Source: Pseudomonadota bacterium (GTDB taxonomy: Bacteria; Bdellovibrionota_C; UBA2361; OMII01). Taken from it: 64,000 nt of DNA. The position numbers and the translations under genes were made by a program. Position 1 is the first letter of the stretch. Every line of letters starts with the position of its first letter. Shown here one piece after another: positions 17,647 through 37,220 of this stretch. The notes beneath the pieces are model-generated. The model was given only the letters and a program-made list of their open reading frames with translations, made no database searches and had not been told where the DNA came from. Where the stretch lies: NCBI GenBank assembly GCA_046300175.1, contig JBKCMS010000094.1, positions 366-64,365 on the forward strand, read 5' to 3'.

Positions 17647-17712
17647 TCCCGTAGTTTTTGTCCTAAGTGATTAGGGCGAGTGAGTTTAATAAATTCTATT
17701 TTGGAGTCTACA

Positions 17713-18996
17713 ATGGCACTTCCCGATGATTCCTACGAGTCTCGCAAACGCAACCTGCAAGCGGTTGACCCGGATATCTATAACCTGATTCAGCGCGAAA
17801 CAGAGCGCCAAGAGTTTGGTCTCGAGATGATTCCCAGCGAGAACTTTGTTAGCGAGGCCGTACTGGAGGCGATGGGATCGGTGCTGACAAACAAGTACGC
17901 CGAGGGGCAACCAGGCAAGCGCTATTACGGAGGTTGTCATGTTGTTGACGAGGTTGAGAATATAGCGAGCGCACGGGCCTGTGAGCTCTTCGGAACCGAG
18001 TTCGCGAACGTTCAACCGCACTCCGGAGTCCAGGCTAACCAGGCTGTTTTTGAGGCTTTCCTGAAGCCTGGAGACACATTTATGGGGCTGAGGCTTGATC
18101 ATGGCGGCCATCTCTCTCACGGTAGCCCGGTAAATTTTTCAGGACGTCACTACAAGGTGGTTGGTTACGGAGTGAGACCTTCTGATTGCATGATTGACCC
18201 AGAGGAGGTTCGGTCTCTAGCAAAGCAGCATCGGCCGGCCTTGATTATTGCAGGCGCCACGGCTTATTCCCGTAAGATTGATTGGAAGCTATTCCGAGAG
18301 GTCGCGGATGAGGTGGGTGCAGTCTTGATGGCGGACATTGCACACTACTCAGGACTAGTGGCAGGTGGGGCCTATCCTTCTCCGGTGCCGTTCGCAGATG
18401 TCGTGACTACCACCACGCATAAGACCCTAAGAGGCCCCCGATCGGGTATGGTCATGGGTCGTGAGGTGCACAGAAAGGCGATTAATAAGGCTGTCTTCCC
18501 GGGACTTCAGGGGGGGCCGCATATGCACACGATAGCTGCTAAGGCGGTTATGTTGAGAGAGGCTCTCTCGCCTGACTTTAAGAGGTATGCTGGGCAGGTA
18601 GTTAAGAATGCTCAGGCCCTCTCTGCAGCATTGATCAAGCGGGGTCTACAGGTGGTGTCGGGAGGCACTGATAGTCACCTGCTAGTGGTTGATCTACGAC
18701 CTATGAATGTTACTGGCAAGGTAGCTGAGGAGACGTGTGACAAAGTTGGGATAACGGGCAATAAGAATACAGTGCCTTTTGACCCACAGCCGCCATCAGT
18801 ATGCAGCGGTATTCGGTTGGGAACGCCAGCTTTAACTACGCGTGGTCTGCGAGAGGCCGAGATGGAGCAGGTAGCTGCCTTCATCGTCGAGGCGCTGGCA
18901 CACTCCCAGGATGAGAATAAATTGGCATCGGTGCGAGAAGGTGTTGTTGAGCTAAGTCGAAAATTCCCTCTATATAAGCATCGCTTGGTAGCTTAG
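17713..18996 (+). CDS. glyA: Serine hydroxymethyltransferase
   Basis: ...[14 protein letters not shown]..., ...[14 protein letters not shown]... (PLP-lysine motif). Start chosen at the ATG at 17713. Confidence 0.93.
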
Positions 18997-19019
18997 GAGT
19001 AAGGCTAGGTAGTTAGTGT

Positions 19020-19505
19020 ATGTACTGTCCCAAGTGCAATTCTGACAAAACCTCCGTCACTGATTCGCGAAGTGACAGCGGTGCTATTCGCCGAAGGCGT
19101 GAGTGCGGTGATTGCGGTTACCGCTTCACAACCTTTGAGCGAGTTGAGTTGGCTTTTCCTGTTGTAATTAAAAAAGATGGCAGCCGTGAAAACTACGATC
19201 GCGAGAAAATCCGGAGTGGTTTGCGCCGAGCCTGCGAGAAGCGGCCGGTAAGCATGGAAACTATAGACGAGGCTGTGGAAGCGATTGAAAAGAAGATACA
19301 AGAGCTTTGTCAAAAAGAGGTAGAGAGTCGTCTGCTGGGCGAGCTAGTTATGGATGAGCTTCGTAAGATAGACAAGATCGCCTACGTCCGGTTCGCCTCT
19401 GTGTATCGTGAGTTTTCTGACGTAAGTCAGTTTGTGGATACTCTGAAAAGTTTAGGCTCAAACTCTCAGAGTGGTAAGAGAGATCCGCAGTCTGGTGCTG
19501 TTTAG
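19020..19505 (+). CDS. nrdR: Transcriptional repressor NrdR
   Basis: MYCPKCNSDKTSVTDSR...RRRRECGDCGYRFTTFERVE zinc ribbon plus an ATP-cone (...KIAYVRFASVYREF...). Confidence 0.93.
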   Translation: MYCPKCNSDKTSVTDSRSDSGAIRRRRECGDCGYRFTTFERVELAFPVVIKKDGSRENYDREKIRSGLRRACEKRPVSMETIDEAVEAIEKKIQELCQKEVESRLLGELVMDELRKIDKIAYVRFASVYREFSDVSQFVDTLKSLGSNSQSGKRDPQSGAV

Positions 19506-19517
19506 GCAAAAAGTAGT

Positions 19518-20765
19518 ATGACTGCCAAGCATGCTAGCCCCTCACATGGTCCCGCAGAGCCGGTAGATACCGATCCATTTGTTGAAGTGTTAGCCCGATT
19601 TAAGAGCGGTGAACCGGTGTTGGTTCTCGATGACGTAGATCGTGAGAACGAAGGCGATGTCATCATTGCAGCGGAGGCTACAACCCCCGATGTAGTTGCG
19701 TTTCTTATGCGTGAGGCACGCGGGCTTATCTGTGTGAGCATATCTAAGCAGCTTGCAGAGTCATTAGAGCTGCCGTACCAAGTAGATACAAACAACTCCC
19801 AATTTCGCACTCCATTTGCCGTAAGTATAGACGCCAAACAGGTCGCTTCAACTGGGGTCACCGCATCATCCCGTGCCAAGACGATCGCAGCGCTAGTTAA
19901 CGCAACAGCCACACGTGACGACTTTGTAACACCCGGGCATGTGTTTCCATTGATAGCAAACGACGCCGGGGTTCTTGGCCGCGAAGGGCACACTGAGGGA
20001 GCTTTTGACTTGGCGCGATTAGCAGGGATGTTTCCTGCTGGAGTATTGTGCGAGGTGCTTAATCCCGATGGTTCAATGGCGCGCGGTGAGCAGCTACTGC
20101 GATTTGCAGATAAGCACAAAATGGCAGTAACAACTATCGCTGCTATTCGTAAGTATCGACTAGAGAATGAAATTGCGGTTAGGCGTCTGTCTATAGGGTC
20201 CATATCCAGTGACCTGGGCGATTTTGCGGTTCACTTGTTTGCAGATGATGCTGGTCACAAAGAGCATCTGGCGATAGTGAGAGGTGATCCGTCACAGGTG
20301 CCAGCATCTTACGCTCCCATCGTGCGGATACACTCAGAGTGCCTGACGGGTGATGTGTTCGGCAGCCGCAGATGTGATTGCGGTAATCAGCTTCAGGGCT
20401 CATTAAACGCGATTGCTCAGGAGGGGATGGGGGTTCTTTTGTACCTCAGGCAGGAGGGTCGAGGAATCGGTTTGGAAAATAAGCTGCGAGCCTATGCTTT
20501 GCAGGACCAGGGTCGTGACACCGTTGAAGCTAATCTTGAACTAGGCTTTCAGGCAGATGAACGTGATTTTGCTGTAGGGGCCCATATTCTGCGTGCTATG
20601 GGCCTGCGCAGAATTAGGCTGGTTACAAATAATCCCCGTAAGGTGGCTGCCATGCAGCAGGGCGGTATCGAGGTTGTTGAGCGAATACCTAGCCTATCTG
20701 AGCCAGATCCATGTAGTACGGGCTACCTGCTGACCAAACGAGACAAGCTGGGCCACGATCTTTAG
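19518..20765 (+). CDS. ribBA: Bifunctional 3,4-dihydroxy-2-butanone-4-phosphate synthase / GTP cyclohydrolase II
   Basis: DHBP synthase part (...DDVDRENEGDVIIAAE..., ...GHVFPL...) followed by the GCH-II part (...RIHSECLTGDVFGSRRCDCG..., ...LYLRQEGRGIGL...). Confidence 0.92.
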   Translation: MTAKHASPSHGPAEPVDTDPFVEVLARFKSGEPVLVLDDVDRENEGDVIIAAEATTPDVVAFLMREARGLICVSISKQLAESLELPYQVDTNNSQFRTPFAVSIDAKQVASTGVTASSRAKTIAALVNATATRDDFVTPGHVFPLIANDAGVLGREGHTEGAFDLARLAGMFPAGVLCEVLNPDGSMARGEQLLRFADKHKMAVTTIAAIRKYRLENEIAVRRLSIGSISSDLGDFAVHLFADDAGHKEHLAIVRGDPSQVPASYAPIVRIHSECLTGDVFGSRRCDCGNQLQGSLNAIAQEGMGVLLYLRQEGRGIGLENKLRAYALQDQGRDTVEANLELGFQADERDFAVGAHILRAMGLRRIRLVTNNPRKVAAMQQGGIEVVERIPSLSEPDPCSTGYLLTKRDKLGHDL

Positions 20766-20819
20766 TCGAGATCGATAGCTGACTTTGACTGCTTACTAAG
20801 GATGCCGAGAAACCAAACC

Positions 20820-21830
20820 CTACGGCGTCACTATCTCAACGCCTCTAAAGGTGAACACCTCGAAATTAAAGTCTAGGTGCCGGTCGCCATTTTCGTTTAC
20901 TTCGCGAAGCCCATTGATGGCGAAAGGTTTGTCTACTCTACCTGTCAGCAACAGGGCTGCATCGTGAAAGGTTGCCGCTGAAACGACGTGATCGGTGACG
21001 CCAGTTCGTTGTTTATACCTACTCACAAATTCAGGCGAAATTTTCGGGGCTGTAAACCACACTTTGTCAAGTGCGTCTCCGGCAGCGCGTATTTCTGCAG
21101 TTCCCTCAAGGAAATTACAGCCAAATATAGGTAGCCCGATCCCAAGCTCCCGTGATTGGCGAGCTAGCCGGCCATTCATCCCGGCTCCGAGACAGATCCC
21201 TATAGCGTCAAACCCAGAGCTCTTGGCTTTTATTAGTTGCGTAGCAAAACTATCTGGGGCCGCAGGGAACTCATGCACACGACTACCCGGGAAACGTAAC
21301 GCAAGCTCCTCCGCCCACTGGGTCGAGTAGGTATGGGTTGTGATGAAGAGCGCTAGCTTTTTATATCCCCGACGACTTACCTCGTCAGCAGCAAAACCGA
21401 GATCCTTAGTACTTGAACTCCACAGTCTAAGAGCGTAGGGATTTTGCGCGAATATTCCATCGCTTGATGCCCAGACAAAGAGCGGCAACTTAAGTTTTTG
21501 TGCAATAGGTGACACCGCCTGCGCGGTAACAGTATCGCCAACTATGGCTGCTGTGATTTTATCGTGCTGTACCAGCTTACGGAACGCTGCAACGCTTTTA
21601 GCTGGGAGAAACCCGTCTTCTTCATAGATAAAAGTTGTGCTCTTACCCACATCTGCCAGCTCGATACCGATTTGATAGGCCTGCCCGTAAGCACCCCACT
21701 CACCGGTATAACTCGCTAGAACACCAACTTTGTTCTCTGCCTTTGCGACCCCTAAAGAGGTAGCCATAAAAGCGAGAGCGATTGCTGAACCTGCTGCCTG
21801 CTGACGTGTAATTTTCAAGAAATTCAGCAT
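20820..21830 (-). CDS. Periplasmic substrate-binding protein, type-1 PBP (Leu/Ile/Val-binding-like family)
   Basis: Signal peptide, then ...ENKVGVLASYTGEWGAYGQAYQIG..., typical of LivJ-like binding proteins. No permease or ATPase genes are adjacent. Confidence 0.65.
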   Translation of the reverse strand: MLNFLKITRQQAAGSAIALAFMATSLGVAKAENKVGVLASYTGEWGAYGQAYQIGIELADVGKSTTFIYEEDGFLPAKSVAAFRKLVQHDKITAAIVGDTVTAQAVSPIAQKLKLPLFVWASSDGIFAQNPYALRLWSSSTKDLGFAADEVSRRGYKKLALFITTHTYSTQWAEELALRFPGSRVHEFPAAPDSFATQLIKAKSSGFDAIGICLGAGMNGRLARQSRELGIGLPIFGCNFLEGTAEIRAAGDALDKVWFTAPKISPEFVSRYKQRTGVTDHVVSAATFHDAALLLTGRVDKPFAINGLREVNENGDRHLDFNFEVFTFRGVEIVTP

Positions 21831-21927
21831 TCGACCCTCCTATTCACATGTATTCATTAGTAGCTGCGCAGAGAGTGCTTATTTACAACCACTTTTAGGC
21901 TATCAGCCATCGTCTGAGCGCACCAGA

Positions 21928-22509
21928 TTATTCGTCTATTCCGAGTAATTCATCCGTAAACGTCTCATTTACTGAATAGTCGGACAGCCAGATGCCAAAA
22001 TAAGCGCGAGTAAATGCTGAGTCGGTAATCGTTCCGAGTAGTCGTTGATTGAAGAAGAGTCGTAGCGTCCGCTGCGACGGATCGTAAGTTACGGCATATG
22101 AGTCACCTTTCTGTACTGGTACATACATGGATTTGATCCGTGATAGAAACGGTCGTAACCGGTCTAGCGAGAGCTGCGGATTTGTTCTCAGGGTCTCTTC
22201 AGATTTATCGATAAACTGATCGACTGATACGCTGCGATGGTATCGGAGTACAAGTTTTTTAGGTATCTCTCCTAAAACATTATATGGTGACGTTTCGGAC
22301 ACCGGCATATACAGGGCTCCAGTGTACACCCGCAACCCCCAATATCGAAAAGTACTCACGCCACGAAGGGTAAGTGATACGCCATCGACCGTCTCTTTCG
22401 TTGAAAAACAGAAGTCGTCACGGCACACTGACGACGAGGCATCTGCGCTACCGTTTGTTGCTGGCCCCAGCACCAGATACATCAGGAAAAATATCCACCA
22501 CCGCTTCAT
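21928..22509 (-). CDS. Chalcone-isomerase-fold (CHI-like) secreted protein
   Basis: Signal peptide. ...VSLTLRGVSTFRYWGLRVYTGALYMP... matches the characteristic CHI-like family N-terminal strand pattern. Confidence 0.55.
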   Translation of the reverse strand: MKRWWIFFLMYLVLGPATNGSADASSSVCRDDFCFSTKETVDGVSLTLRGVSTFRYWGLRVYTGALYMPVSETSPYNVLGEIPKKLVLRYHRSVSVDQFIDKSEETLRTNPQLSLDRLRPFLSRIKSMYVPVQKGDSYAVTYDPSQRTLRLFFNQRLLGTITDSAFTRAYFGIWLSDYSVNETFTDELLGIDE

Positions 22510-22559
22510 TTCAGCTCCTCTGTGCAGATCTCATCAAACATGCTCGCTCAATCCTAACG

Positions 22560-24290
22560 CTAAAGAACTCTGATCCTTGAAATCGACCAGTCAAACTGGG
22601 CGTGTCCGGTTTGGTAGATAAACAGACACGAAACGGTAGCTGGGTCTTTAAAAATAACTCGCACATCATTACGCGGGGAGTAATAGGGGATACCTCTTGA
22701 TAGAACCCTTAAAGCACCTTGCCAGGTTGGGTGCTCGGCTAGAATGACAGCGGCGGTCTGATCGCAAGATCCTCCGGCAATCCGAAGTCCGCGCGGATAA
22801 TCAGTGAAATATCGGCCCGGATCAAGGTCAACCCCGCGAATCTCTACCGGGGAACTAAAGCGGACTATAAGCAGTTCATCTCCGCGTTGTGAGCCGGTGC
22901 GAGTCGACCAGCGCCACGCATCATCCGCTGGACCTCCTTGGCTCACTTGTGATTGAGATGATATAGGATGCATTTCGACGACAGCATTTAGGCTTCTAAC
23001 ATCTCTGGACGGTAGGCGCGAGCTATCGCGAATGGTCTCTAGTTGCTTAGTGATGTCACCTTCCGATGCTGCGAGAGAGCGAAAAATAGCGGCCGAGGGC
23101 GACAAAATAAATGGTCGCAGTGTCTCGTTTTCGACGATGCCAACCCTTCTGAGCATGGGGCTATAGATATTCGGTGAGCCTACTACTGACAGGAGTGCTA
23201 CGGAACAGGCAAGTGGTACTAAGCTTATAGTTCTGAGATTAAGGACCAGGCTCGTGACTGTCATCCAAGCGCTAAGACCGAGTGCCACAGAGGTAATTGA
23301 GTAGCACGTTCCCCACGGTATCATACGTGACAGGCTCGGAAGGGGTGAAATCGCCGACAACGACTCAGTAAAGCAAGTGTTTAAGGACGCCAAGAGAGCG
23401 AGTACCATACCAACTTTGCCGGTGTATCTGGCCACTGCAGTGTTGTGCCTCCGGCGGAACCACCAGGCGATGATGGCCAGCACCAGCAAGGTAAAAGCCC
23501 GGTCACTATACTCAGCCCGCACAGCTGCTCGGTCGAGGGTATCAAATGGATAAGTAGGGCCCAGCAAGGGCCGCAGCGTGCCAAAGTTGCCCTCGAAGGG
23601 CAAAACATGCACTGACTTGGGATAGTGGGGCAACTCAGGCATCGGAGCGGTAACGGTTGCCAGTAAAGCTGGAGCAAGGGCTAACGACCAAGTTATTGCT
23701 CGCCGCTGACAGCTACCAGGAAGCGAAAGTGATAAAAGGTATGCCAGCCAGACCGCTGTTGCTACACTGGGCAGAGAGGCCAAATTAGCGCTGAAAGCAG
23801 CTTCGATGCTCACGATAAATAAGCCAATAAGGGGCAGATGGCCGTGCGTGCTGATCATCGCGATGTGCGCAGCGATAGCAACAAATGGAACCCAAGCCAC
23901 TGAACCGACCACTACTGGGTCAAGTCCGGTGACAAACACGATGAATGAAACAGCCAGTGCGGCGCCAGCCCAGAGCACTATTATGCTGGTAGGTCGTTGC
24001 ACTGAGCACCTGCGCAGAAATATATATGTGCCTATCAGCAAGAGGATCATTCCAGGAACGGGACGCTCGGCGAAATTGAAATTGGGACTGAGTAGTGAGG
24101 CAAGGCGCGTTAGATGATCTAGTCGCCACGAGTGATACCCGTTATTATTGAGGTTCACCAATGCAAACCAAGTTTTCTGCCGAAAATCTCCGGCAAGCGA
24201 AGATGATTGGAAGTAGGTCAGGAGCGCCAAGAGAGCGCCAGTAGCGAGTAAAAACCCGAGCATCGATACGGCGACGGCGCGTCTAATCAT
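22560..24290 (-). CDS. Polytopic membrane protein with a C-terminal discoidin (F5/8 type C)-like domain
   Basis: About 10 predicted transmembrane segments, then ...WRWSTRTGSQRGDELLIVRFSSPVEIRGVDLDPGRYFTDYPRGLRI..., which resembles galactose-binding/discoidin domains. I chose the ATG at 24290 (MIRRAVAV...), which forms an ATGA overlap with the upstream stop. The track start at 24359 lies inside the upstream gene. Confidence 0.6.
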   Translation of the reverse strand: MIRRAVAVSMLGFLLATGALLALLTYFQSSSLAGDFRQKTWFALVNLNNNGYHSWRLDHLTRLASLLSPNFNFAERPVPGMILLLIGTYIFLRRCSVQRPTSIIVLWAGAALAVSFIVFVTGLDPVVVGSVAWVPFVAIAAHIAMISTHGHLPLIGLFIVSIEAAFSANLASLPSVATAVWLAYLLSLSLPGSCQRRAITWSLALAPALLATVTAPMPELPHYPKSVHVLPFEGNFGTLRPLLGPTYPFDTLDRAAVRAEYSDRAFTLLVLAIIAWWFRRRHNTAVARYTGKVGMVLALLASLNTCFTESLSAISPLPSLSRMIPWGTCYSITSVALGLSAWMTVTSLVLNLRTISLVPLACSVALLSVVGSPNIYSPMLRRVGIVENETLRPFILSPSAAIFRSLAASEGDITKQLETIRDSSRLPSRDVRSLNAVVEMHPISSQSQVSQGGPADDAWRWSTRTGSQRGDELLIVRFSSPVEIRGVDLDPGRYFTDYPRGLRIAGGSCDQTAAVILAEHPTWQGALRVLSRGIPYYSPRNDVRVIFKDPATVSCLFIYQTGHAQFDWSISRIRVL

Positions 24291-26491
24291 GAGCTTCCTC
24301 CAATTAGCCGTTGCCACGGGGAGACGCTCTTTATGGTCACAGGAGTGCCAGGCGAGCATCCGGTTAGGGTTATCAGATTAAATCCTGCATCGCTGGCGCT
24401 TGCTCCGATTGAGCACGAGGTCGAGGAGATAAATGGAAAATGTCGAAACTTGAGAGTGAGGGATTCTGAGGTTGGGATAAAAGACACCGAGTTGGAGGTG
24501 TAGGTCAGGTCAGCTAGGCTGCCATTCATCGTATACGATGGCGAGTAGTTTAAACGCCTGAATACGAAAAATATCTCGCCACGCCACACCTGCTCGTATT
24601 CGTTCGGACGTTTCTTGAAGTAGTCTATCCACGTTGGCTCATGGGCCGTTACCACTGTGGCGTTCATCAGGTCTAGAAATTCTTTAATACCTTGATCTCC
24701 GCGGGAGATAAACGACTCCGGGATAGGTTGTTCGTATCTCCAGATGTTGTGTGCATAGCTCGATGCCACCATCGGAGTCTTTGCCCACAGCGGCAGTGGT
24801 GCGAGGTGCCCTCCACTGAACTGGTGCAATACACATCCGCTAAAAAGCACGCGCCCACCCGCGGCATGTTTAGATACGGCGCGAATAAAAGATGGAAGCT
24901 CTTTGTCTGCAAAGCTGTAGGTGTCATCTGCTCGATTAAGAACTACAGAGGTGGCCGTGAACGGACTTACTAAGACAAACGCTCCAGAGCAGATTGCCGC
25001 TAAGGTGAAAGTGATCCCACGTCCAGCTGAGGTAAAAAGTTGATACAGGAATTGACCTATGGGGATGGTGACTAAAATCGACGCGATGATAATCATTCGG
25101 TCAAGCTCTAGCTGCGGCTTGAGCGATACCCCAGCAGTGCCGAGTAGCAGCAGCCAGGAGCAGAGTGCAATCAGGTACCAGCGCGCAATACCAGAAAATG
25201 CTATCAGTGCCGGTATGGCGAAAACCACTAAGATTGGGTTGAGTGCGGTCGCGTTGCTTTGCCAATTAGCGAGGGCATTTTTTAGACTAAAAGTGCCGCT
25301 TTTGTGGCGATAGATCGTTGCACTAGCAGGGGAGTTGGGGGGAGCTAGAGAATTCGATGACTCACTTGAGGCTACTGGCGTTGGCGGGACAACAGCAGTG
25401 TGCGAATCGAGAAAGCGCCCCACATTGGAGACCTTCCACATCATACACATCCATGGCAGGTTTAAAGCTAACATTATGCACGCAGCGGCGAGATGTCGCT
25501 TTGAGAGAATTAGCTTAGGAATTCGTGGCAGCGCAACAAGTAGAATCGGTAGTGCTGCTATACCTGAGGGAGACCACAGTAGCATCAGAGTCGTCGTAAT
25601 GCATACGAGAACCATAGCGGCGCGAGATGGACGCTCAGCATGGATGAAGCGGATTGCTAATGCCGCAACCAAAGGAAATAGCGCAGTGCTGGTGATAAAA
25701 CCAACCGTGCCGTACTTTAGCGCCCAGCGAAACCAGAAGAGACCTGAACACAACGAGAGAGTGGTAGCAATAGAAGCAGCAACCACCGGAAGACCGAGCA
25801 TTCGTGCAGCTGCAAAGAGGCATGCAGGCGCAATAACCCAGAGCAGCCCGCCTATTAATATCGGATAAATAGCTTCCACGGGGAAAAGGTGAACGAGTGG
25901 GGCGCTTAGCAGGTATGCGTTTAGGGCTCCGGTGGCAAAAAAATCTCGCGCATCAAAGCCCGCGTTCCATAATGGAGACCAGAAAGGAATAGAAGGGAAA
26001 TTTTCGCGCAGGAGTTTTAACCTGAATAGAAACATCGGATGGTCATCTGAGAAGATCATCATCCCGTTAGCCGCGACTGAGAATGACCAGATGAGAAGTC
26101 CAATGACGACCATCGGCCAGCTAGCAAAGAAGCGTGACCAGAGTCGATAATGAAATAGAATGAAACAGATTATTGCGCCGACAAATAGCTCACCTCGGAT
26201 AGTTGGCCCCTTAAAGAGCCCCCAGGGTCTGTTCATCCAATCGGATATAAAGATGGCGAGTAAACCGAGCGTCCAGATACGCCTTTCTGTAAATGACTCC
26301 TTCTTGAGCCACCCTTGGCCGATTAAGTACGACACGCATGCTGCAGAAGCTGATAGCAAAAAGCCCGCGAGGACGAGATAGCGGCCAGCGGGGATCAGCG
26401 CTTCGTTTGAGCGTTCCCAGAGATACCAAGCACCTCCTGAAAGGCCCAGCACTATGAGCAGAAGTCCTGACGAGGCGAGGAGATGAATCAC
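24287..26491 (-). CDS. Large polytopic membrane protein, possibly a GT-C-fold glycosyltransferase/polymerase-like enzyme
   Basis: 734 aa with at least 12 hydrophobic segments. An acidic loop motif early in the protein (...IFSDDHPMF...) recalls GT-C enzymes. The C-terminal roughly 200 aa look soluble. No diagnostic motif recognised. Confidence 0.5.
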   Translation of the reverse strand: MIHLLASSGLLLIVLGLSGGAWYLWERSNEALIPAGRYLVLAGFLLSASAACVSYLIGQGWLKKESFTERRIWTLGLLAIFISDWMNRPWGLFKGPTIRGELFVGAIICFILFHYRLWSRFFASWPMVVIGLLIWSFSVAANGMMIFSDDHPMFLFRLKLLRENFPSIPFWSPLWNAGFDARDFFATGALNAYLLSAPLVHLFPVEAIYPILIGGLLWVIAPACLFAAARMLGLPVVAASIATTLSLCSGLFWFRWALKYGTVGFITSTALFPLVAALAIRFIHAERPSRAAMVLVCITTTLMLLWSPSGIAALPILLVALPRIPKLILSKRHLAAACIMLALNLPWMCMMWKVSNVGRFLDSHTAVVPPTPVASSESSNSLAPPNSPASATIYRHKSGTFSLKNALANWQSNATALNPILVVFAIPALIAFSGIARWYLIALCSWLLLLGTAGVSLKPQLELDRMIIIASILVTIPIGQFLYQLFTSAGRGITFTLAAICSGAFVLVSPFTATSVVLNRADDTYSFADKELPSFIRAVSKHAAGGRVLFSGCVLHQFSGGHLAPLPLWAKTPMVASSYAHNIWRYEQPIPESFISRGDQGIKEFLDLMNATVVTAHEPTWIDYFKKRPNEYEQVWRGEIFFVFRRLNYSPSYTMNGSLADLTYTSNSVSFIPTSESLTLKFRHFPFISSTSCSIGASASDAGFNLITLTGCSPGTPVTIKSVSPWQRLIGGSS

Positions 26492-26730
26492 TGATCGACA
26501 ACAAAAAATACTGTATCGTTTTGAAACGCAGATAAGGCCGCGTGCGCCGCTGGCGGCACGCGCCTGTCGGGCGCCGTAAGAAGCCCGCCGCGATTCAACC
26601 CGGTAGTCTATATTGCTATCGACCAGTCGTCAAAAGTTCTGTTGTATCAGGTAGTTGTCGGGCCATTATAGCGCTCCTCAAGGTAGCCTTTAAGGAACCA
26701 GGGGGGCAATGTGGCAAAAAACCACTAGTT

Positions 26731-27873
26731 CTAATTCTCGGTCTTGCTCGGATTCTGCACCCCGTGTTCGGAGTAGAAGCTATCGAAGCTAAAGACCGCA
26801 TCAGAAAAGGATGCCAGAGCTCGGTCGTTGTCGCGCTTATTTAGCGCATCTAGACCCTCTGCAAGCCTAGTCTTGATTATTTCCAGATTAGAGGGCTTAA
26901 AGTTTAGGTAGTGTTTTCCATCTGCCGATTTGCGAGCCTCGTAACACTGCAGGCTTGAGACTAGGTTGGCTACTGCTCCGAGGGTTTCCCCTTGCGCCTG
27001 CTGTATCAGAGCTTGAAGGGCAAAGTATCTAGGGCTCTCTTCTAGCTTCTCGCTGCATGCGAGGCACTGAGCTGCCGAGTTCGGATCTTGAAAGTGCAGA
27101 AATAATGCAGCTAGAGAGTGGTACGAAGCAGCGGCGCTCTCTTCGCTAAAAGATCTCCAGTCATGCTTGGGAAATAGCTCCTCGATGTTCATGCCGTCGA
27201 TTGCAGCGCGAAGGCATCGGGCCTTTGCCGCATTTGATAAGGTGCACAGTTGAGAAAGGGTCTCTGGATTCACAAGCGGTGTGATCCTGGCGGTCGTGCG
27301 CACATAGTCTCCATCGGAGATAGCGGTGATCATCGCTCTCGCCATGATTTCAATGACTGACTCGTTTCGGGCAGAGCATGCTGACGTCATCGTGCTTCGC
27401 GAAGTCGAAATACTCATCAGAGGCCATGCACTTGAGCTTTGAAGCATTGCCACGATCGATTCTGGTGAAAACTCAGTGGTGCTCACTGAGCTATTTGATA
27501 GAGCTGGAGCAACGATTATATGTTCGTTCAAATTTCTATTCTCTATCTCTGGCACAAGTTTTGAGAGGTCCGTCTCTGTGAATACTAAAGCGGAGTTAAC
27601 CATAAATACCCGCTTGCTGGCGGCGATTGATACCGCCTGCGCCACGGCTTCAGGGAGTGTCTCTGCCGTGATCCACATTCCAGTCGAGAATCCCTCTGGA
27701 GCCTGCTGGGTGCTTGCCACCAAGATATCCGCAAACGCTTTGACATCGTCGAGGAGTTGAGTTGTATCGACAACTGCAGCTTGCGTTCCGATTTCATCGA
27801 TAACTATCGCGCTATGCATAAGAACCCCGTTAACCATCGCGTTAAAAACAGGCTGAGCGCCTATAATTTCCAC
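26731..27873 (-). CDS. Hypothetical soluble protein (orphan)
   Basis: 380-aa ORF, co-directional with and 105 nt downstream of the TamB-Omp85 gene. The N-terminal roughly 100 aa are vaguely Roadblock/LC7-like and the C-terminal part is helical and TPR-like. I am not confident of any family match. Confidence 0.5.
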   Translation of the reverse strand: MEIIGAQPVFNAMVNGVLMHSAIVIDEIGTQAAVVDTTQLLDDVKAFADILVASTQQAPEGFSTGMWITAETLPEAVAQAVSIAASKRVFMVNSALVFTETDLSKLVPEIENRNLNEHIIVAPALSNSSVSTTEFSPESIVAMLQSSSAWPLMSISTSRSTMTSACSARNESVIEIMARAMITAISDGDYVRTTARITPLVNPETLSQLCTLSNAAKARCLRAAIDGMNIEELFPKHDWRSFSEESAAASYHSLAALFLHFQDPNSAAQCLACSEKLEESPRYFALQALIQQAQGETLGAVANLVSSLQCYEARKSADGKHYLNFKPSNLEIIKTRLAEGLDALNKRDNDRALASFSDAVFSFDSFYSEHGVQNPSKTEN

Positions 27874-27978
27874 CTTTCTGTGGGGTGCTCATCTGTTGTA
27901 GTCCTGTGGCTACAGAGAGATAGGATGCAGGGATCAGGAGAAGCGTTCTAATTTTATTTGATCAGGAATATTATATGG

Positions 27979-30900
27979 TTAGAACATACTGCCGACTGAA
28001 AAATGGATTCTGACAGAGGGCTCTCCAGACTTCTCATCGAGTGGTCGCCCCAGGTCAAAGCCGATTGGGCCTATCGGCGAGAGATACTGGAATCCGACTC
28101 CAACACTGGTGCGCAGGTCTTCCAGATCAAAGTCCTGATGCTGCAGGAACACATTTCCGAAGTCAAAGAAGAGGTGAGTACTTACTGAATCATCGGCGAG
28201 GTATTGAAGTTGTGTTTTACCGGCTATCATCGCATCACCTCCGATGACTGCACCATCTGAGCCCCTAGGGCCGAGAGAATTCTCCCTAAACCCGCGCACG
28301 GTAGTACGACCACCGAGATAAAAGCGCTGAGTGATCGGAATCTCTTCTGTGTCGCCCCACGGTTTAGAGATGCCTCCACTCAAACCAAGGCCCAGAGAAT
28401 AACGCGATCCGTAGCCAGCGAGCGGTATAATGGCGCTACTCTTGGCAACCAGAGAGCCAAAGTTGGCTTCAGAGGCAATTTGCTGAAAGGCAACTTTAGG
28501 CTCCACTGTCACTGTATAGCCGGATCTGGGTAGGAGTGGGTCATCGCGTTTGTCGTATTTAATGATGCTCGAAAGGAAGCTTAGGCGCACCGAGCCGTCG
28601 TCTAAATCTGAGATGACAGCACCGGGTGTCACATCTTGTAGGTTATCGAACACAAGCGAGTGCCCCGCAGAGAACGCAAGTTCATTTTGTATCTGTCTAA
28701 ACAAGTAAGAACCCACCAAGAGTCGATCAATGTTGAACTCCTGAGTGCTTAACTCCTGTCGTTGGTAACGGACTTCTTCGGTCAGGGAATATTCGGAATC
28801 TAGGAAGGACGGATCTGAATATCGCAGGCTAGTAAAGCCCTGACTGATCAGACCTGAGCCACTTGGATTGATCTGCGCCTGGTCAAAATATGTATCAACA
28901 CGGAGGGATAGGGTACGTCCATCAGAAAAGAGAGATTTGTTTGTGGCCTCGCCAAAGGTATGCAGGCCGAATTCGGAATTAGCGCCTAGCCCTAGTTCGA
29001 GAGTCTGCATCGGGCGTTCCACAACTCGAATTATCAGTGCCTCGTTGGCTCCATCGATAGCTCCATCTTGGGCTGTAATCTCAACCCTTGAAAACAATCC
29101 CGTCCGCAAAAGCTCCCGTTTGGTGGCATTGATATCTTCAACTCGGTAGGGAGATGCAGGTTTTAGTTTCGTTGATCTAGCTGCAGTACGTTCGGAAATA
29201 GACACCAGTCCTTCATAGGTGATTGAGCCCACAATCGTTCGCTGTCCCGGCACAACCGACACACTAATAGCTGAGTAGTCATCAGTGGGTGTGGCAAATA
29301 CCGCAGGTGATAGAAAGCCTTCGTTGCTGAGAGACTCAATCAGCAGGTCGATATACATATTCACCCGCGGCAGAGATATCTGGCCAGATGGAGGTTTTGG
29401 GAGATTTAACCCCGCTGGGTACCCGCTGACTTCGCCTAAATTCAAACGTTGAGGTTCTCCCTCTTGGATTGTGAACACAACATCAACTGAGCTTGATTTT
29501 TCGCGTTGCCGAATATCATACGAAGCAGCAGCGTCGGGGTAGCCTTCGTGGTGATACACAGATACGATGGCATCGCGCAGGGCGTCTAAGCGAGCCGGAA
29601 TTGCAAAGGTTGCATCCATGGCAGCCACGTGCTCTTTTAAGCCCATAGAATTCATCGACTTGATCAGGTTCGATCTGCTTAGGTGAGAATTCCCGATCAA
29701 GCTTAAAGTCTTGATTTCCACCGGTGCCTCTTCAGTGATGGCAATCCGATAAACCAGTCTCTCTGGATCGGACCTATCTTCAGAGTGAGAAACCTGAGCA
29801 AAAAGGTAACCCTCTTCCTGATACATTCGTTCGATGTTTTGGATGAGCAGGGTAATAGTATTATTTCCGAATGGTCGTTTGCGAGAGAATAGATCGATAC
29901 TGTTTAGAAAGTCTTCTTCTGTGAATTCCTTATTGCCAGTGAATGTAAAGGATATAGCCTGTCTAAGCTCTGATGTTACTACTAGGGTGCTTGAATGGTT
30001 TACTATATCGTGCCGGTAAGAAGGCGTAATGCGGGCTGCGATATAACCTTCGTTGCGCAGTGAGAGTACGAGTGCCCGCTCTACGCTGGCGAGAATTGAT
30101 GAGGTAGCGAGGGTCTTAATAGGAGCAATGGAGGTAACCTTTTGTACTAGCTCCGGGCTCAATTCGTCTCCCTCGAATATCACTCCCGAAACAGTGCTTG
30201 GTTGTCGCTCTTGAATGGTAATTAGCAGATCGTGACAAAACTTATCTCCTGAGCGACAGGAGACAGATGCGGACGCTGCTGTAAAACCGTGCTCGTTCAT
30301 GTATGTAGCTATCTGATTTTGAATTAGTGTCAGGCTCTCTGGAGTGTTCGCTATACGAGATGATGGGCCAAGACGAGCGGCGTTCAGGATTGACTGTTCA
30401 CTGAATTGGTTTAATCCCTCGATCGAAATAGTTACGAACCGAGATTCCTCGGACCATACAGTATAGGTCAGGTCGCTCGACAGAATAGAGTTTTTCTGGG
30501 TGCTGACGGTCTGGAAGAAAGCATTAATGTCAAGCGCTGGGGTAAGAGAGTAAACACCACCTGCTCGTGAATTACTAACTGAGCTAAACAAGCTCTCGCC
30601 AAGTAGGGTCAGGCGCGGAGAGATATTCTTACGCGCCACTACGGCAGGCTCAATTGTGCCGGTGAACTGGTTATATGCAGGTTCGAATGAGAGGATGTCA
30701 AGCTTGGTCAGGTTGCGGAAGAATGCTTTAAAGCTTGAGAAGGAGGTATCAGAGATGAAAAATCGCTGGTCTGAGCCAAACTGTGAGTCCATGCGGCCCT
30801 TCATCGTGCTTTCACCAAGCGGGCGGGATGAAGTAAGAATTAGTAGCAGGTCGCTTTGGGAGAGCCCTCGGTCAGAGTTAAGTGAAAACTTAGGAGCAGA

Positions 30901-33708
30901 GAGCGGACCTGATGCGTCGAGTATCACCAGTATACTCTCACCTGTTGGTGCTCGCAGGTTGCCTTCACCCACCAGCTCAAGGTGCGGAATAAGTGATGAA
31001 GGTTTAAAAGTTAGTCCTCCTGAAGTGATGTCAAATCGATTACCTTTCAGGCCAGCCCAGCCGCTGAGAATCTGCATGGAGCCTTCCAGAGCAGGTGATG
31101 TCACAGTGCCTCTAGCACGGAGATTAGTGTTGAGCTCGGCACTAAGAAATGGTGTCACAACGAATATATTCCGAGGGGCGGAAATTGCTACGTCAAGCTC
31201 CAGGTCCACTGAACTCTTCTTCGCTGCCGGCTGGATACGAGTCGGTAGGAAGTATCCGGAAATTGTGCTCATAATTAGCTTGTTTAGATCGAAGTCCTTA
31301 GCTACCTCCGCAAAAGTAATGTCTAAAGCACCTGAGAGAGTTTGGCGCTGTTTCTGATTAACGCCGAGAGCTAAGTCTCCCGAGAAAGTGATCGTAGCGT
31401 CCTCAATCGGTTCAATAGTCACCTCTTTTAGCTCGGTGCGTAGAGAGGAGTTGCCCGGTTCAAAGGGCAGAAGAGTGCCAGAGGCCGTAAAGGTGCCACC
31501 ATTCACTGAGCCTCCAAGTTTATTGATCCGAATAGCTCGCCCTGACAGAGAAAAATCCCCTGATATATGGTGGCCTCCTAGCTCCGGGGATGAAACACCG
31601 AACTGACCGTTAATTAGCTGGGCTGTTCCGGTTACTAATGGCTGCGATAAAGCGCCCTGAATGGATACATCGGTTTTTAATAGTCCACGGAGATCATCCA
31701 TGGCCGGTAAAAGAGGCAGCAGTGAGCTTAATTCAAGGCGTCCTCGTGCGGACATAGCAAAACCTTTGGCAATGCCCAGCTCACCATCAAGCTCCAGAGC
31801 GCTTTCCAGGGTAGCCAACGAGAGATTCTTGAGTTGCAATGCCCCGTTTCGTATCGGTATGCGCGACTCAGGCGGTGCTGATAGAGAGTAGGGGGCACAA
31901 CCTATTGCTAAAGAGTGCAGAATTACTTCACCGCTCCCTGCAAGAATCGCCTGTAGAGGAAATGTATAGGATAGTGAAGCTCCTACCTTACTGCACTCAT
32001 CTTCGTGACCTACGATCTCTTTCAGCTTGACCTCGGGTTGTGTGAAGCGCAGCTTGCCTTCGTAGCTCTTAGCAAAATCAACGGTGAGCTCCGCGCCAGC
32101 TCTTAGAGGAGAATTGGGTAGGGTAACTCTAAGTACTCCATCTTTAAGATTGGCTCGACCTGATAAAGGATACCCTGCGTGAAGCGCCGGCGAACGCACA
32201 GTTATATCCCCATCGGCAAGTAGAGTATTCAATCCTAGCGGCCCACGTAGCGCTATCTGAGAGGTGAAGGCTAGCGGACTTAGTGTCTCTTTGGTTACTG
32301 GAAGGGACAACGGGTAGCGATAATCGACGAGACTCAAGGAGCTGTCCTTTAGTGAAGCATCCGGTGATGATAGGTCGATCAGACCGCGCCACTTGAGCAC
32401 TCCTTGCTGTTTGTTGGAGCTCTCTACTGCGATGTCAGCGGCGGTTGGTGATACATGTATCTGAATCCGACTTGGTCCCAGTGAGAATCCCTGCATCAGG
32501 AGGTCATCTGATGTGATGGTAATATCGGTTGAGACGCCCGCCGGCCCCTCTGTGACATCGATCGTAGCGTTTGCTTTGGTTACCGCGAACGGCCCGTACT
32601 CAAATCGAGGTACCTTAGCGCTAAACCCGGCAGCTAGGCCCGCATCAGATAGCTTTAGGGGCTTAGTTGAGGTAAGCACCGCCTGTTCGTTTGAGGCATT
32701 AAGATCGGTCAGAGTGATGACCGGGTCTCCTCGGTTTACGTCGATTGTGAGTCCGCCAGACAGCTTTGGAAAATTTAGCTGGGATGCAAACGGCAGCGCT
32801 ATGGAGAAGGCGGTGTCGGGGCTACTCTGAATACTTCCGGTTAGTAGAGGGCTGCCAAGGGTCCCCGATATTGTGGTGTTGCCGATAATCAGGCCACGTA
32901 GCCAATCGGGAAGACCTATATAGTCGGGGGATACCGTGAAGGAGGTGTTACCTGAGAAAGTTGAGCTCTGGTCAGATAGAGCGACCCCAGTTGCTTCAAT
33001 ATGAGAGCGGTCGCGACCGAGGGTTAGAGACCTAAAAACGGTCTGCGCATCCTCAATCATTATTGAGCCAGCTAGTGGGCCGAGAAATAATTCCTGCGGA
33101 GGAGAACCAGGAGTGTCACCGTAAGTTGTGTAGCGGAAATCAGCGATACGGGGAGTGAGGGCATAATATTCACCATCTCGTTTAACGCTAAGAGATACGC
33201 CAGAGCCTGATATCTCGCTAGAACCAAAGGATTCGCGCAGGAATGATTTCCTGACCTCAAGGGAGTCCAAGATAACACGCCATCTGTCTGGCAACTGTTT
33301 CTCCGGTGGGAGCGGTTTTGTTAACTGATCGATAAATCTGAATGTAACTGAATTAGGACCAACGCCATCGGCCGTGCCATCATTAAGGATAAGATTGCGC
33401 AGATGAACCTTGCGGTCACGAATCTCAGAGATATCGATCTTGGTCGTAATAGTCTTGAAAGATAGTCTCGGCACACCTTTCTCGACGATTCGAACGTTAC
33501 GGGCGCGAGCTCTCAAGGTGGAGAACGAGAGGGAGAGAGAGTCAAAAGCAAGCGAGCAATCGCACGAGGCTATAACCTCCTCCTCAAGAGCGCTAACCAC
33601 CTCATTTATCAACCACTGTTTTGCTAGGAGTATGACTGCCCCGGTGGACAGGCCAAGGAAGAGGCCGATAGAAGCCAGTGTTTTGCCGCGAAACAGTCTA
33701 CGTATCAC
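27979..33708 (-). CDS. Single-chain TamB-like (AsmA-like/DUF490) + POTRA + Omp85 beta-barrel fusion protein
   Basis: Uninterrupted 1909-aa ORF.
- aa 1 to about 1085: signal anchor (LASIGLFLGLSTGAVILLA), a long beta-rich body, and a DUF490-type end (...SAPKFSLNSDRGLSQSDLLLILTSSRPLG..., ...ARKNISPRLTLLGESLF...).
- aa about 1090-1565: repeated POTRA-like units ending in ...EGY(I/L/P)...
- aa about 1565-1909: Omp85 barrel (...RFYLGGRTTVRGFRENSLGP..., ...VGVGFQYLSPIGPIGFDLGRPL..., terminal ...SVGSMF). Confidence 0.8.
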   Translation of the reverse strand: MIRRLFRGKTLASIGLFLGLSTGAVILLAKQWLINEVVSALEEEVIASCDCSLAFDSLSLSFSTLRARARNVRIVEKGVPRLSFKTITTKIDISEIRDRKVHLRNLILNDGTADGVGPNSVTFRFIDQLTKPLPPEKQLPDRWRVILDSLEVRKSFLRESFGSSEISGSGVSLSVKRDGEYYALTPRIADFRYTTYGDTPGSPPQELFLGPLAGSIMIEDAQTVFRSLTLGRDRSHIEATGVALSDQSSTFSGNTSFTVSPDYIGLPDWLRGLIIGNTTISGTLGSPLLTGSIQSSPDTAFSIALPFASQLNFPKLSGGLTIDVNRGDPVITLTDLNASNEQAVLTSTKPLKLSDAGLAAGFSAKVPRFEYGPFAVTKANATIDVTEGPAGVSTDITITSDDLLMQGFSLGPSRIQIHVSPTAADIAVESSNKQQGVLKWRGLIDLSSPDASLKDSSLSLVDYRYPLSLPVTKETLSPLAFTSQIALRGPLGLNTLLADGDITVRSPALHAGYPLSGRANLKDGVLRVTLPNSPLRAGAELTVDFAKSYEGKLRFTQPEVKLKEIVGHEDECSKVGASLSYTFPLQAILAGSGEVILHSLAIGCAPYSLSAPPESRIPIRNGALQLKNLSLATLESALELDGELGIAKGFAMSARGRLELSSLLPLLPAMDDLRGLLKTDVSIQGALSQPLVTGTAQLINGQFGVSSPELGGHHISGDFSLSGRAIRINKLGGSVNGGTFTASGTLLPFEPGNSSLRTELKEVTIEPIEDATITFSGDLALGVNQKQRQTLSGALDITFAEVAKDFDLNKLIMSTISGYFLPTRIQPAAKKSSVDLELDVAISAPRNIFVVTPFLSAELNTNLRARGTVTSPALEGSMQILSGWAGLKGNRFDITSGGLTFKPSSLIPHLELVGEGNLRAPTGESILVILDASGPLSAPKFSLNSDRGLSQSDLLLILTSSRPLGESTMKGRMDSQFGSDQRFFISDTSFSSFKAFFRNLTKLDILSFEPAYNQFTGTIEPAVVARKNISPRLTLLGESLFSSVSNSRAGGVYSLTPALDINAFFQTVSTQKNSILSSDLTYTVWSEESRFVTISIEGLNQFSEQSILNAARLGPSSRIANTPESLTLIQNQIATYMNEHGFTAASASVSCRSGDKFCHDLLITIQERQPSTVSGVIFEGDELSPELVQKVTSIAPIKTLATSSILASVERALVLSLRNEGYIAARITPSYRHDIVNHSSTLVVTSELRQAISFTFTGNKEFTEEDFLNSIDLFSRKRPFGNNTITLLIQNIERMYQEEGYLFAQVSHSEDRSDPERLVYRIAITEEAPVEIKTLSLIGNSHLSRSNLIKSMNSMGLKEHVAAMDATFAIPARLDALRDAIVSVYHHEGYPDAAASYDIRQREKSSSVDVVFTIQEGEPQRLNLGEVSGYPAGLNLPKPPSGQISLPRVNMYIDLLIESLSNEGFLSPAVFATPTDDYSAISVSVVPGQRTIVGSITYEGLVSISERTAARSTKLKPASPYRVEDINATKRELLRTGLFSRVEITAQDGAIDGANEALIIRVVERPMQTLELGLGANSEFGLHTFGEATNKSLFSDGRTLSLRVDTYFDQAQINPSGSGLISQGFTSLRYSDPSFLDSEYSLTEEVRYQRQELSTQEFNIDRLLVGSYLFRQIQNELAFSAGHSLVFDNLQDVTPGAVISDLDDGSVRLSFLSSIIKYDKRDDPLLPRSGYTVTVEPKVAFQQIASEANFGSLVAKSSAIIPLAGYGSRYSLGLGLSGGISKPWGDTEEIPITQRFYLGGRTTVRGFRENSLGPRGSDGAVIGGDAMIAGKTQLQYLADDSVSTHLFFDFGNVFLQHQDFDLEDLRTSVGVGFQYLSPIGPIGFDLGRPLDEKSGEPSVRIHFSVGSMF

Positions 33709-33824
33709 GAGGGTAGCAATAGCATATTAAACCACAAAACGGCAGGTAATGAGGTGAAAATGGTGTCTGGCGTTTACCAAAAGTCCATAGCCCAATACCC
33801 GCTTATGAGACACGTTATCAGCGG

Positions 33825-34547
33825 CTAACGCCCAAGTAGGAAAAGGCACGGCTGCTTACTGAGCTTTGGTGGGGTTTTGCGCCAGACGCTGACCGGATGC
33901 GTTTTAATGTACTCGGATGGAGTTGTGAGCCCTTGAGCGATGCAGAGGCGCACGGCAGGCTTGCAGACTTGTAGCAGGTCATGTAACAGCTTGTCGTTGC
34001 GGTACGGTGTGTCCATGATGATCTGAGTTTCTCCCGATGTTAGAGCTATCTCGCTCAGATTTTTAATAGCCACCCCACGCTGTTGGGCCTCTATCGGTAG
34101 GTAGCCCACAAAGCGCCATGCTTGTCCGTTGAGTCCCGATGCCATCAGAGCGAGCACCATTGAGCACGGCCCCACGAGTGGAACCACACGCAGATTGTTG
34201 GCATGGGCGAAACTCACAAGGGATGCACCAGGATCCGCGATGCCAGGGCAGCCAGCCTCAGAGATGACTCCAATGCTGTGTCCGGATGAGAGGGGGGACA
34301 TAAGCTCTGCCAATGTTTCCCTCTGCACCGTTTCAGGGATCCGTTGAATCGACAGTTCGCGAATGGCCATGTTAGGGCAGAGTGCCTTGATAAAAGCGCG
34401 TGCAGAGCGCTCCTCCTCGACAAGAAAGTGTTTCAGCGATGCTACTGTAGTGGCAGCAATAAGTGGTAGTGAGTGATCGACTGATGCAGCGCCGAGAAGA
34501 TTTGGTATTAGAAATAGAGCTGGAGCTGCTGATGAAGCGCTGTTCAT
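33825..34547 (-). CDS. Tetrapyrrole-methylase-fold SAM-dependent methyltransferase (RsmI-like)
   Basis: ...IGVISEAGCPGIADPGASLV... and ...VPLVGPCSMVLALMASGL... resemble the RsmI/YraL family. I chose the ATG at 34547 (MNSASS...) to avoid overlap with lipA. Confidence 0.65.
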   Translation of the reverse strand: MNSASSAAPALFLIPNLLGAASVDHSLPLIAATTVASLKHFLVEEERSARAFIKALCPNMAIRELSIQRIPETVQRETLAELMSPLSSGHSIGVISEAGCPGIADPGASLVSFAHANNLRVVPLVGPCSMVLALMASGLNGQAWRFVGYLPIEAQQRGVAIKNLSEIALTSGETQIIMDTPYRNDKLLHDLLQVCKPAVRLCIAQGLTTPSEYIKTHPVSVWRKTPPKLSKQPCLFLLGR

Positions 34548-34551
34548 CACT

Positions 34552-35475: not shown

Positions 35476-35488
35476 TACAGATAGTTAT

Positions 35489-36766: not shown

Positions 36767-36991
36767 GGGGTACCTTTAAAAGATATAGATAGTCTCCGGG
36801 AGTATAGTAAATAGAGAGTCATTTGCCAAATGACCATAAAAAGTCCCGATTTATTGGCTCCGGGGGGTGCTGCTGTGCCCCATAACTGTCGTAAGAAAAA
36901 TAGTAGCTACTCACCGGTTTAAAAGGTTGTGGTTCATGCTTCATTTTTAATTATCACCATTTCGTTGATCATTCTTTCTGGTGAGTAGTTA

Positions 36992-37135: not shown

Positions 37136-37220
37136 GGTGCTACAGTCGCTGCATTTGCTTAGTAGTTACGAAAAATAAATATGTTCATGGGTTGAAACTA
37201 GCGGTCGAATCGCGGTAAAC

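Follow-up and report, generated by a model that had tools for sequence, protein, structure and literature searches.

Gene content of the locus

We analyzed a 12.9-kb run of six minus-strand genes in a 64,000-nucleotide (nt) stretch of DNA (hereafter the window), which lies on contig C94 of the genome (3.36 Mb, 96% complete) of an uncultured freshwater member of the Bdellovibrionota. The six genes encode a fusion of TamB with an Omp85 protein (FUS), a conserved protein (P380), two polytopic membrane proteins (P734 and P576), a secreted chalcone-isomerase-like protein (CHI) and a periplasmic binding protein (PBP). A first-pass annotation, made from the letters alone, had read them as one candidate module for the export of a lipid or glycoconjugate. 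Our analysis favors another reading, namely that P734 and P576 form the only functional unit of the run and that the remaining genes are unrelated neighbors. The genes in question and their flanks are as follows (coordinates are those of the window; aa, amino acids; AF2, AlphaFold2; SHMT, serine hydroxymethyltransferase):

27979..33708, minus strand: FUS, single-chain translocation and assembly module (TAM), 1909 aa; Pfam and NCBIfam matches
26731..27873, minus strand: P380, conserved protein, 380-aa frame; likely true start at ATG 27819, giving 362 aa
24287..26491, minus strand: P734, predicted GT-C fold glycosyltransferase, 734 aa; AF2 model, Foldseek, VIA
22560..24290, minus strand: P576, predicted GT-C-like membrane domain plus CBM32/discoidin-like domain, 576 aa from ATG 24290
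21928..22509, minus strand: CHI, secreted chalcone-isomerase-like protein, 193 aa; Pfam PF16036
20820..21830, minus strand: PBP, LivJ-like periplasmic solute-binding protein with signal peptide, 336 aa; PF13458
33825..36766, minus strand: methylase-like gene, lipoyl synthase (lipA) and 2-oxoacid dehydrogenase E2; Pfam
17680..20765, plus strand: glyA (SHMT)-nrdR-ribBA, convergent housekeeping flank; Pfam, synteny

The list of open reading frames (ORFs) places all six genes of the run at these coordinates, consecutive and co-directional as first annotated. Of the gaps given by the first-pass annotation along the run from the fusion gene, four stand (105, -4, 50 and 97 nt) and the one given as 240 nt is 239 nt; the gap between the fusion gene and P380 becomes 159 nt if P380 starts at M19. 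Most of the labels held up as well. The TamB-Omp85 fusion carries PF04357, POTRA and PF01103 in one frame, CHI matches Chalcone_3 (PF16036) at 2.2e-24 (86.9 bits against a curated cut-off of 27), and PBP matches Peripla_BP_6 (PF13458) at 1.7e-21 (77.7 bits against a curated cut-off of 31.7), with no transporter genes adjacent to it within the window. For P734, the Foldseek and VIA matches all point to a GT-C protein, as had been suggested, and the discoidin-like domain seen in P576 is retained for a protein of 576 rather than 577 aa. The supposed orphan P380, by contrast, has homologues in 53 of 61 related genomes. None of the 380-, 734- and 576-aa proteins matches a Pfam or NCBIfam family above cut-off.

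The co-directional run extends beyond these six genes to nine, as the methylase-like gene, lipA and the E2 gene precede the fusion gene on the same strand; at its opposite end the run meets the convergent genes glyA-nrdR-ribBA. The ribBA/PBP, PBP/CHI, CHI/P576 and P576/P734 junctions are each spanned by contigs of four further metagenome studies of lakes, and therefore the arrangement is no assembly artefact and the insertion of CHI and PBP described below is real.

Conservation of gene order

We searched each protein in 61 genomes of the genus, family and order, fetched 20 regions, and compared 77 loci spanning 10 kb on either side of P734 homologues; the source collection holds one genome for each of 185,579 species. 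As a background control we used ribBA. The fusion gene lies upstream of P734 in 23 of the 40 loci with at least 9 kb of upstream flank, and ribBA lies downstream of P734 in 23 of the 37 loci with at least 8 kb of downstream flank. Split by divergence class, the counts are 13/15, 6/8 and 4/17 for the fusion gene and 14/17, 6/6 and 3/14 for ribBA; because the two sets fall alike, the linkage of the fusion gene decays like that of an unrelated riboflavin gene. Of the 61 loci with at least 2.5 kb of flank, 48 have P576 as the next gene downstream of P734, and in the most divergent class the count is still 13 of 20. Only the P734-P576 adjacency exceeds background synteny. A check of whether the six-gene neighborhood is conserved across genomes thus went against it: CHI and PBP are found in 0 of the 77 loci, and the fusion gene, which had been taken to belong with the GT-C pair, is linked to it only within the order, no more strongly than the housekeeping flanks are, and is unlinked in the other orders searched.

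Thirteen loci have no adjacent P576. Five of them belong to the genus (45-47% identity in P734) and have ribBA about 600-2,500 nt downstream, seven are low-identity P734 matches (30-35%) that are probably paralogues, and the last is the locus L058. A second, divergent P734 paralogue of 30-35% identity without adjacent P576 is present in several genomes (L095-L100, G036:C4:30604-32745, G045:C140:63486-65594).

Moreover, the block breaks on either side of P380. Specifically, four genomes (G024, G005, G048 and G052) keep the fusion gene with P380 and carry P734-P576 elsewhere, in G048 and G052 on the same contig more than 100 kb away, and G007 keeps fusion-P380-ribBA together, its P576-P734 having moved as a unit to another contig. 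In G049 and G047, P380 is kept next to P734. Across several families, more than 100 kb or a change of contig separates the fusion gene from the pair. One member of the order (G053, 1.8 Mb, 92% complete) has no TamB domain or fusion and retains P734. In this genome an ABC exporter gene ends 1 nt before P734 (L119:6761-10762), and a P576-like gene stands apart, next to an SGNH/AlgX-like gene and glyA-nrdR (L120:7459-10267).

At the phylum level, the P734 family is present in 120 of 124 genomes, the P576 family in 93 of 96 and TamB likewise in 93 of 96. In the other orders of the class that were searched, TamB was never near P734 among the matches listed, the only shared contig being that of G071, where the two are about 0.8 Mb apart. 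Nine outgroup genomes have P734 and P576 side by side (G065, G068, G069, G070, G071, G078, G083, G084 and G088), and in another (G066) the two are 3.7 kb apart. Several of these outgroup pairs have sugar-related neighbors: a GT4 gene directly upstream of P734 in G069 and G071, GT4 and polysaccharide pyruvyl transferase genes within 5 kb of P734-P576 in G068, a methyltransferase with an NAD-dependent sugar epimerase/dehydratase in G083 and G084, and a PMT_2 GT-C gene in G065.

CHI and PBP as an inserted pair of genes

CHI and PBP are an insertion private to this lineage, located at the convergent P576/ribBA junction and outside the conserved block. They are absent from all 77 loci around P734 homologues, and in the closest relatives examined (G004, G006 and G011) glyA-nrdR-ribBA is followed by the convergent P576-P734-P380-fusion, with ribBA directly abutting P576. 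CHI homologues occur in 21 of the 61 genomes, never on the contig of P734-P576, and PBP orthologues (51-63% identity) occur in several relatives, always on contigs other than that of the cluster; the two genes are not linked to each other in relatives. In G021, the genes surrounding CHI form a block whose counterpart in the window's genome is on contig C34, and PBP sits between C166-like and C180-like genes in G019 and G032 and beside C166-like genes in G009. No flanking repeats were found at the insertion.

The P576/ribBA junction is variable and holds different cargo by lineage (L029, L031, L046, L053, L060 and L072; the ribBA/PBP junction of the window is 20766-20819). The cargo includes a PIG-L deacetylase with a GNAT protein and 3-hydroxyacyl-CoA dehydrogenase, a polysaccharide pyruvyl transferase with a GT2 protein, an RlmI-like methyltransferase, and formate-tetrahydrofolate ligase with an amine oxidase. 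We also observed that the CHI of the window is 67-73% identical to those of more distant members of the genus (G021, G008, G018, G031 and G034) and about 50% identical to those of the closest relatives (G004 and G011), a pattern that suggests either two paralogous types or transfer within the genus.

P734 and its predicted fold

Sequence comparison gave P734 no family name: no Pfam family, including STT3 and PMT, matched at E<=0.1, and a sequence search returned 250 matches, all of them 'hypothetical' and without a Pfam assignment. An AF2 model built from 29 homologues (predicted local distance difference test, pLDDT, 87.3) had only GT-C enzymes among its top 30 Foldseek matches, and on re-alignment the VIA Z-scores were 22.8 to yeast STT3 (447 residues), 22.0 to AglB, 18.9 to ArnT and 17.7 to PglB. 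These alignments start at model residues 111-124, the canonical first transmembrane helix (TM1) being helix 118-141, and therefore P734 has four extra N-terminal transmembrane helices before canonical TM1. The C-terminal domain is periplasmic. The motif D149-D150-H151 is invariant, with D149 and D150 found in 29 of 29 and in 42 of 42 sequences, and the two aspartates lie 8-9 residues after the helix aligned with canonical TM1, a placement made by alignment offsets and not by residue-level superposition.

P734 resembles the oligosaccharyltransferases STT3, AglB and PglB, as well as ArnT, in its GT-C membrane core and its mixed C-terminal periplasmic domain, and its invariant acidic pair would likewise follow canonical TM1. 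It differs from them in having the four additional N-terminal helices and in lacking both a Pfam family and a WWDYG-like motif. The WWDYG-type motif is a C-terminal-domain motif of the STT3, PglB and AglB oligosaccharyltransferases; P734 has no WW dipeptide anywhere, and therefore no motif of this type. P734 is a new sequence family with a predicted GT-C fold, outside the named families. Our literature search found no paper combining GT-C, Bdellovibrionota and glycosyltransferase, and no description of a P734-P576 GT-C pair was found in the literature searched, including passages of PMC4494059, PMC4104836 and PMC5582053.

P576 and its predicted complex with P734

The open frame of P576 (22560-24359) would encode 599 aa, and its homologues are 551-587 aa long; the ATG at 24290 gives 576 aa. 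This start overlaps the stop of P734 as ATGA and has its own GGAGGA (Shine-Dalgarno) 8-13 nt upstream. By sequence, P576 has 17 matches that carry no family name, a weak match to the Allantoicase repeat (E 0.012), and no Pfam match in the membrane part. The AF2 model, built from 37 homologues (pLDDT 92.3), shows a membrane domain (residues 1 to about 420) followed by a CBM32/discoidin-like jelly roll (about 425-576). The C-terminal domain was matched by Foldseek and has Z 13.0 to 4zxe_A and 12.5 to 2v72_A, superposing on CBM32 modules with Z 12-13 and a root-mean-square deviation of 2.7-3.0 over 120-126 residues. It has the galactose-binding-domain-like jelly-roll fold of the CBM32/discoidin (F5/8 type C) modules and differs from them in its setting, as it is joined to a polytopic membrane protein and not to a glycoside hydrolase. 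The lectin domain would lie in the periplasm. In many genomes (at least about 50 matches listed) a second protein of about 650-760 aa shares only this CBM32-like domain with P576 (for example G008:C3:4060-4422 and G018:C60:29539-29901), and therefore the lectin module is reused.

The membrane part of P576 matches only GT-C structures (Z 10.2-11.7), namely STT3 (11.7 over 304 residues), AglB, Pmt1/2, Pmt4, AftD and DPY19, in a VIA-wide list that is dominated by the C-terminal domain and barely samples other folds for the membrane part. Language-model features and Atlas structures place the protein with DUF6044, AftD-type, YfhO and PMT_2 clusters (0.97). The YfhO/DUF6044/PMT_2 proteins are the nearest to the membrane domain (197 of 256 features shared, Atlas TM by query 0.57-0.63); P576 differs from them by its added CBM32-like domain, by the missing Pfam match in its membrane part and by the lack of a conserved catalytic acidic residue. 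N50 is the sole invariant position of the first loop (residues 27-58); at D58, 27 of 37 sequences have an acidic residue. Because this loop has no conserved acidic residue, P576 is probably non-catalytic.

We predicted the complex of P734 (residues 1-530) and P576 (residues 1-430) from alignments made in this analysis, together with three controls. The pair reached an ipSAE of 0.77, a mark that is attained by 116 of 157 solved complexes and by 2 of 215 mismatched pairs, and the best of the three controls reached 0.00. The runs agreed in at least 96% of contacts, with a partner pLDDT of at least 81. This prediction supports binding of P576 to P734. The predicted interface is formed in P734 by residues 96-107, 132-139 and 511-520, among them R99, which is invariant, and G100 and E101, which are nearly so, and in P576 by residues 213, 235-245 and 313-323, among them R322 (invariant) with G244 and P316 (nearly invariant). 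As a partly independent check of this interface, we compared P734 between loci with and without P576. Position 100 is K or R in all four P576-less loci (full-length genes), versus G in all 38 loci with the partner; in the P576-less loci the small residues at position 514 are replaced by H, R or N, and R520 by Q or K. Over the same four loci, D149, D150, H151 and 11 other conserved positions of P734 are unchanged.

Pmt1-Pmt2 and EmbA-EmbB are heterodimers, and both P734 and P576 have fold matches to Pmt and Emb structures. The resemblance lies in two membrane proteins of predicted GT-C fold that are encoded side by side and are predicted to form a complex. The differences are that P734 and P576 share no detectable sequence homology, that the first loop of P576 has no conserved acidic residue, and that the predicted interface uses the lineage-specific N-terminal helices of P734.

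Interpretation of the locus

We interpret the 12.9-kb run as a composite of four unrelated pieces, in which P734 and P576 are the sole functional unit and stand beside a single-chain TAM, and we assign this reading a probability of roughly two in three. The four pieces, namely the TAM, P380, P734 with P576, and the inserted CHI and PBP, would be co-directional by chance in a compact genome. No evidence in this analysis ties CHI, PBP or TamB functionally to P734-P576. What would survive of the lipid or glycoconjugate export module first proposed is P734 and P576 as a glycoconjugate-making unit; the six-gene module exporting through the TamB-Omp85 fusion does not. For the pair itself, we infer both the donor and the acceptor. 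P734 would be the catalytic subunit, its invariant D149-D150 in the first periplasmic loop activating the acceptor, and, if it works like all known GT-C enzymes, it would take the sugar from a donor linked to polyprenyl phosphate. P576, which appears to be translationally coupled to P734, is predicted to dock on the extra N-terminal helices and canonical TM1 of P734 and presumably holds or selects the glycan acceptor or product.

Several observations weigh against this interpretation. Of the 21 outgroup genomes that have both P734 and P576, 11 carry them on different contigs, and one sublineage of the genus is without P576 altogether; therefore the partnership is not obligatory. The four P576-less loci belong to one lineage, so the changes at the interface count as one event. 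The complex score is a measure of model confidence, obtained on alignments made in this analysis, and the position of D149-D150 relative to the catalytic residues of solved GT-C enzymes comes from alignment offsets only. The Z-scores of 10.2-11.7 for the membrane part of P576 are below the level of about 13 under which the aligner advises caution for helical bundles, and we set aside the idea that P734 and P576 are paralogues, as hhalign gave a probability of 1.6% and no homology was seen. Finally, most of the genus and several other families of the order still have the fusion gene, P380 and the pair in one contiguous, co-directional row (23 of 40 loci), and the genes may be functionally tied within this order.

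This last observation speaks for a functional envelope-biogenesis unit, an ancestral order-level block of fusion gene, AI-2E transporter gene (see below), P380, P734 and P576 in which the pair would glycosylate a lipid or outer-membrane protein that is carried or inserted by the TAM. The near-universal presence of both the fusion and P734 in the order also fits such a unit. We nevertheless consider it improbable, since the linkage of the fusion gene decays at the rate of ribBA, lipA adjoins the fusion gene just as tightly in distant members, and lineages differ in the side of P380 on which the block has come apart. In addition, G053 keeps P734 and shows no TamB domain or fusion, the outgroup orders have the pair with an unfused and unlinked TamB, and the gaps within the block are 159 and 239 nt, with a promoter-like site upstream of P734. 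A more specific cooperation, in which a lipid or outer-membrane protein moving along the TamB groove would be glycosylated in the periplasm by P734 and P576 before the fused Omp85 inserts it, is in our estimate more doubtful still.

A different alternative keeps the pair as the functional unit and concerns the acceptor: P734 could resemble oligosaccharyltransferases in function and modify proteins of the periplasm or outer membrane rather than lipids or polysaccharides, with the P576 lectin recognizing the transferred glycan. STT3 and AglB are indeed the best matches of P734, covering the membrane core and part of the C-terminal domain (residues 117-650, Z 22-22.8). However, the WWDYG-type motif and a Pfam STT3 match at E<=0.1 are both missing, and good matches extend to ArnT (Z 18.9), ALG12 and AftD, so that the acceptor of P734 cannot be read from its fold; the outgroup neighbors are of polysaccharide type (GT4, pyruvyl transferase, epimerase). 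We therefore regard a glycoprotein acceptor as unlikely. Lastly, the inserted CHI and PBP could have been recruited as partners of the GT-C pair in this lineage, forming a new operon, given that they lie on the same strand with short gaps of 50 and 97 nt and that several lake populations share the arrangement. In no relative, however, does either gene lie near the pair, the two are not linked to each other elsewhere, and the P576/ribBA junction carries unrelated cargo elsewhere, as expected of a permissive insertion site, so that recruitment seems very improbable to us. The composite reading is the one we retain.

If P734 and P576 are indeed the functional unit, there is no longer support for tying a CHI-fold protein and a glycosyltransferase to lipid transport of the AsmA/TamB type, tempting as that link was, and the locus illustrates that background synteny in compact genomes can mimic an operon. 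P734, a predicted GT-C enzyme, is core to the phylum and belongs to no described family, and together with P576 it points to a glycan or glycoconjugate of the envelope that would be characteristic of these bacteria, which are uncultured and presumably predatory. With P576 probably non-catalytic, the pair may also be a case, found in nature, of a GT-C enzyme that has a pseudoenzyme as its subunit.

The single-chain TAM

The fusion gene is of separate interest for the organisation of the TAM. In E. coli and other Proteobacteria, the TAM consists of two proteins, TamA in the outer membrane and TamB, which has its anchor in the inner membrane, with genes in the order tamA then tamB. The fusion shares with this system the TamB/DUF490 domain, an Omp85 barrel preceded by three POTRA domains, and a membrane anchor at the N terminus, and it differs in being one uninterrupted 1909-aa polypeptide with the TamB part first, rather than two polypeptides. 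Its single frame comprises an N-terminal signal-anchor, a TamB-like region (PF04357 at 2.7e-29, residues 734-1083), three POTRA stretches (PF07244) and an Omp85 barrel (PF01103 at 2e-47, residues 1627-1909). The genome encodes a separate BamA and a third Omp85 elsewhere, and the fusion holds its sole TamB domain and is therefore this genome's TAM. The third Omp85-family gene is at G000:C148:12851-13576 (763-aa frame), outside the window.

Fusion frames of about 1900 aa are found across the order, and a single-chain TAM, with TamB fused N-terminally to a TamA-like three-POTRA Omp85, is an order-wide trait. In the other orders, 19 of the 22 genomes with a match have TamB frames of about 1000-1390 aa, and three (G062, G071 and G085) have frames of at least 1700 aa. 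No description of a TamB-Omp85 fusion was found in the literature searched, which included passages of PMC4494059 (in which neither 'fusion' nor 'fused' occurs), PMC4104836 (in which nothing on TamB was found) and PMC5582053; a phrase search for such a fusion returned irrelevant papers only.

The most persistent upstream neighbor of the fusion gene is lipoyl synthase (L060:2409-8930, L064:2562-9192, L086:836-7303; window 33709-35475). In these three distant members of the order, lipA ends 25-62 nt before the start of the fusion gene and the methylase-like gene of the window is missing. Tight co-directional adjacency is common among unrelated genes here.

P380 and the intergenic regions

The homologues of P380 begin at M19, which gives a protein of 362 aa and the 159-nt gap to the fusion gene. 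Its N-terminal half is variable, and the C-terminal half is TPR-like and helical, with at least 30 invariant positions. Family members show weak, sub-threshold TPR matches (10 of 23) and faint GT2/GT21 matches (3 of 23, E about 0.01), the Atlas lead is to GT2+TPR proteins (0.91-0.92), and a search of the P380 profile against PDB sequences gave a single match, at E 0.41. Judged by eye, P380 has no N-terminal signal-peptide-like segment and would therefore be cytoplasmic. We considered P380 as an active GT2 enzyme feeding the GT-C protein and set this aside, the GT2 signal being faint and the N-terminal half having no invariant acidic residue; the expected GT-A DxD position reads N-S-A in the window and D-A-x in divergent members.

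Most of the genus carries an additional gene, of about 340 aa, that separates the fusion gene from P380 (L045:7579-8604 and L028:7604-8629, with equivalents in L037, L038 and L053), and the two copies scanned, those of L045 and L028, match the AI-2E (PerM-like) transporter family. This gene is absent from the window, where the corresponding place is 27874-27978, and from the closest relatives. In one locus (L043), P380 and P734 are separated by an AI-2E gene and two genes of about 665 aa without a family name.

An Rfam scan of 19000-37500 returned nothing at E<=1. Promoter and terminator scans gave site numbers no better than those of shuffled sequence (14 versus 15.8 and 17 versus 14.5), and they were not used as evidence, except that one promoter-like site was noted. 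The 239-nt spacer before P734 (26492-26730), which has no Rfam match, contains a promoter-like TTGACG-17-TAGACT followed by a G+C-rich inverted repeat.

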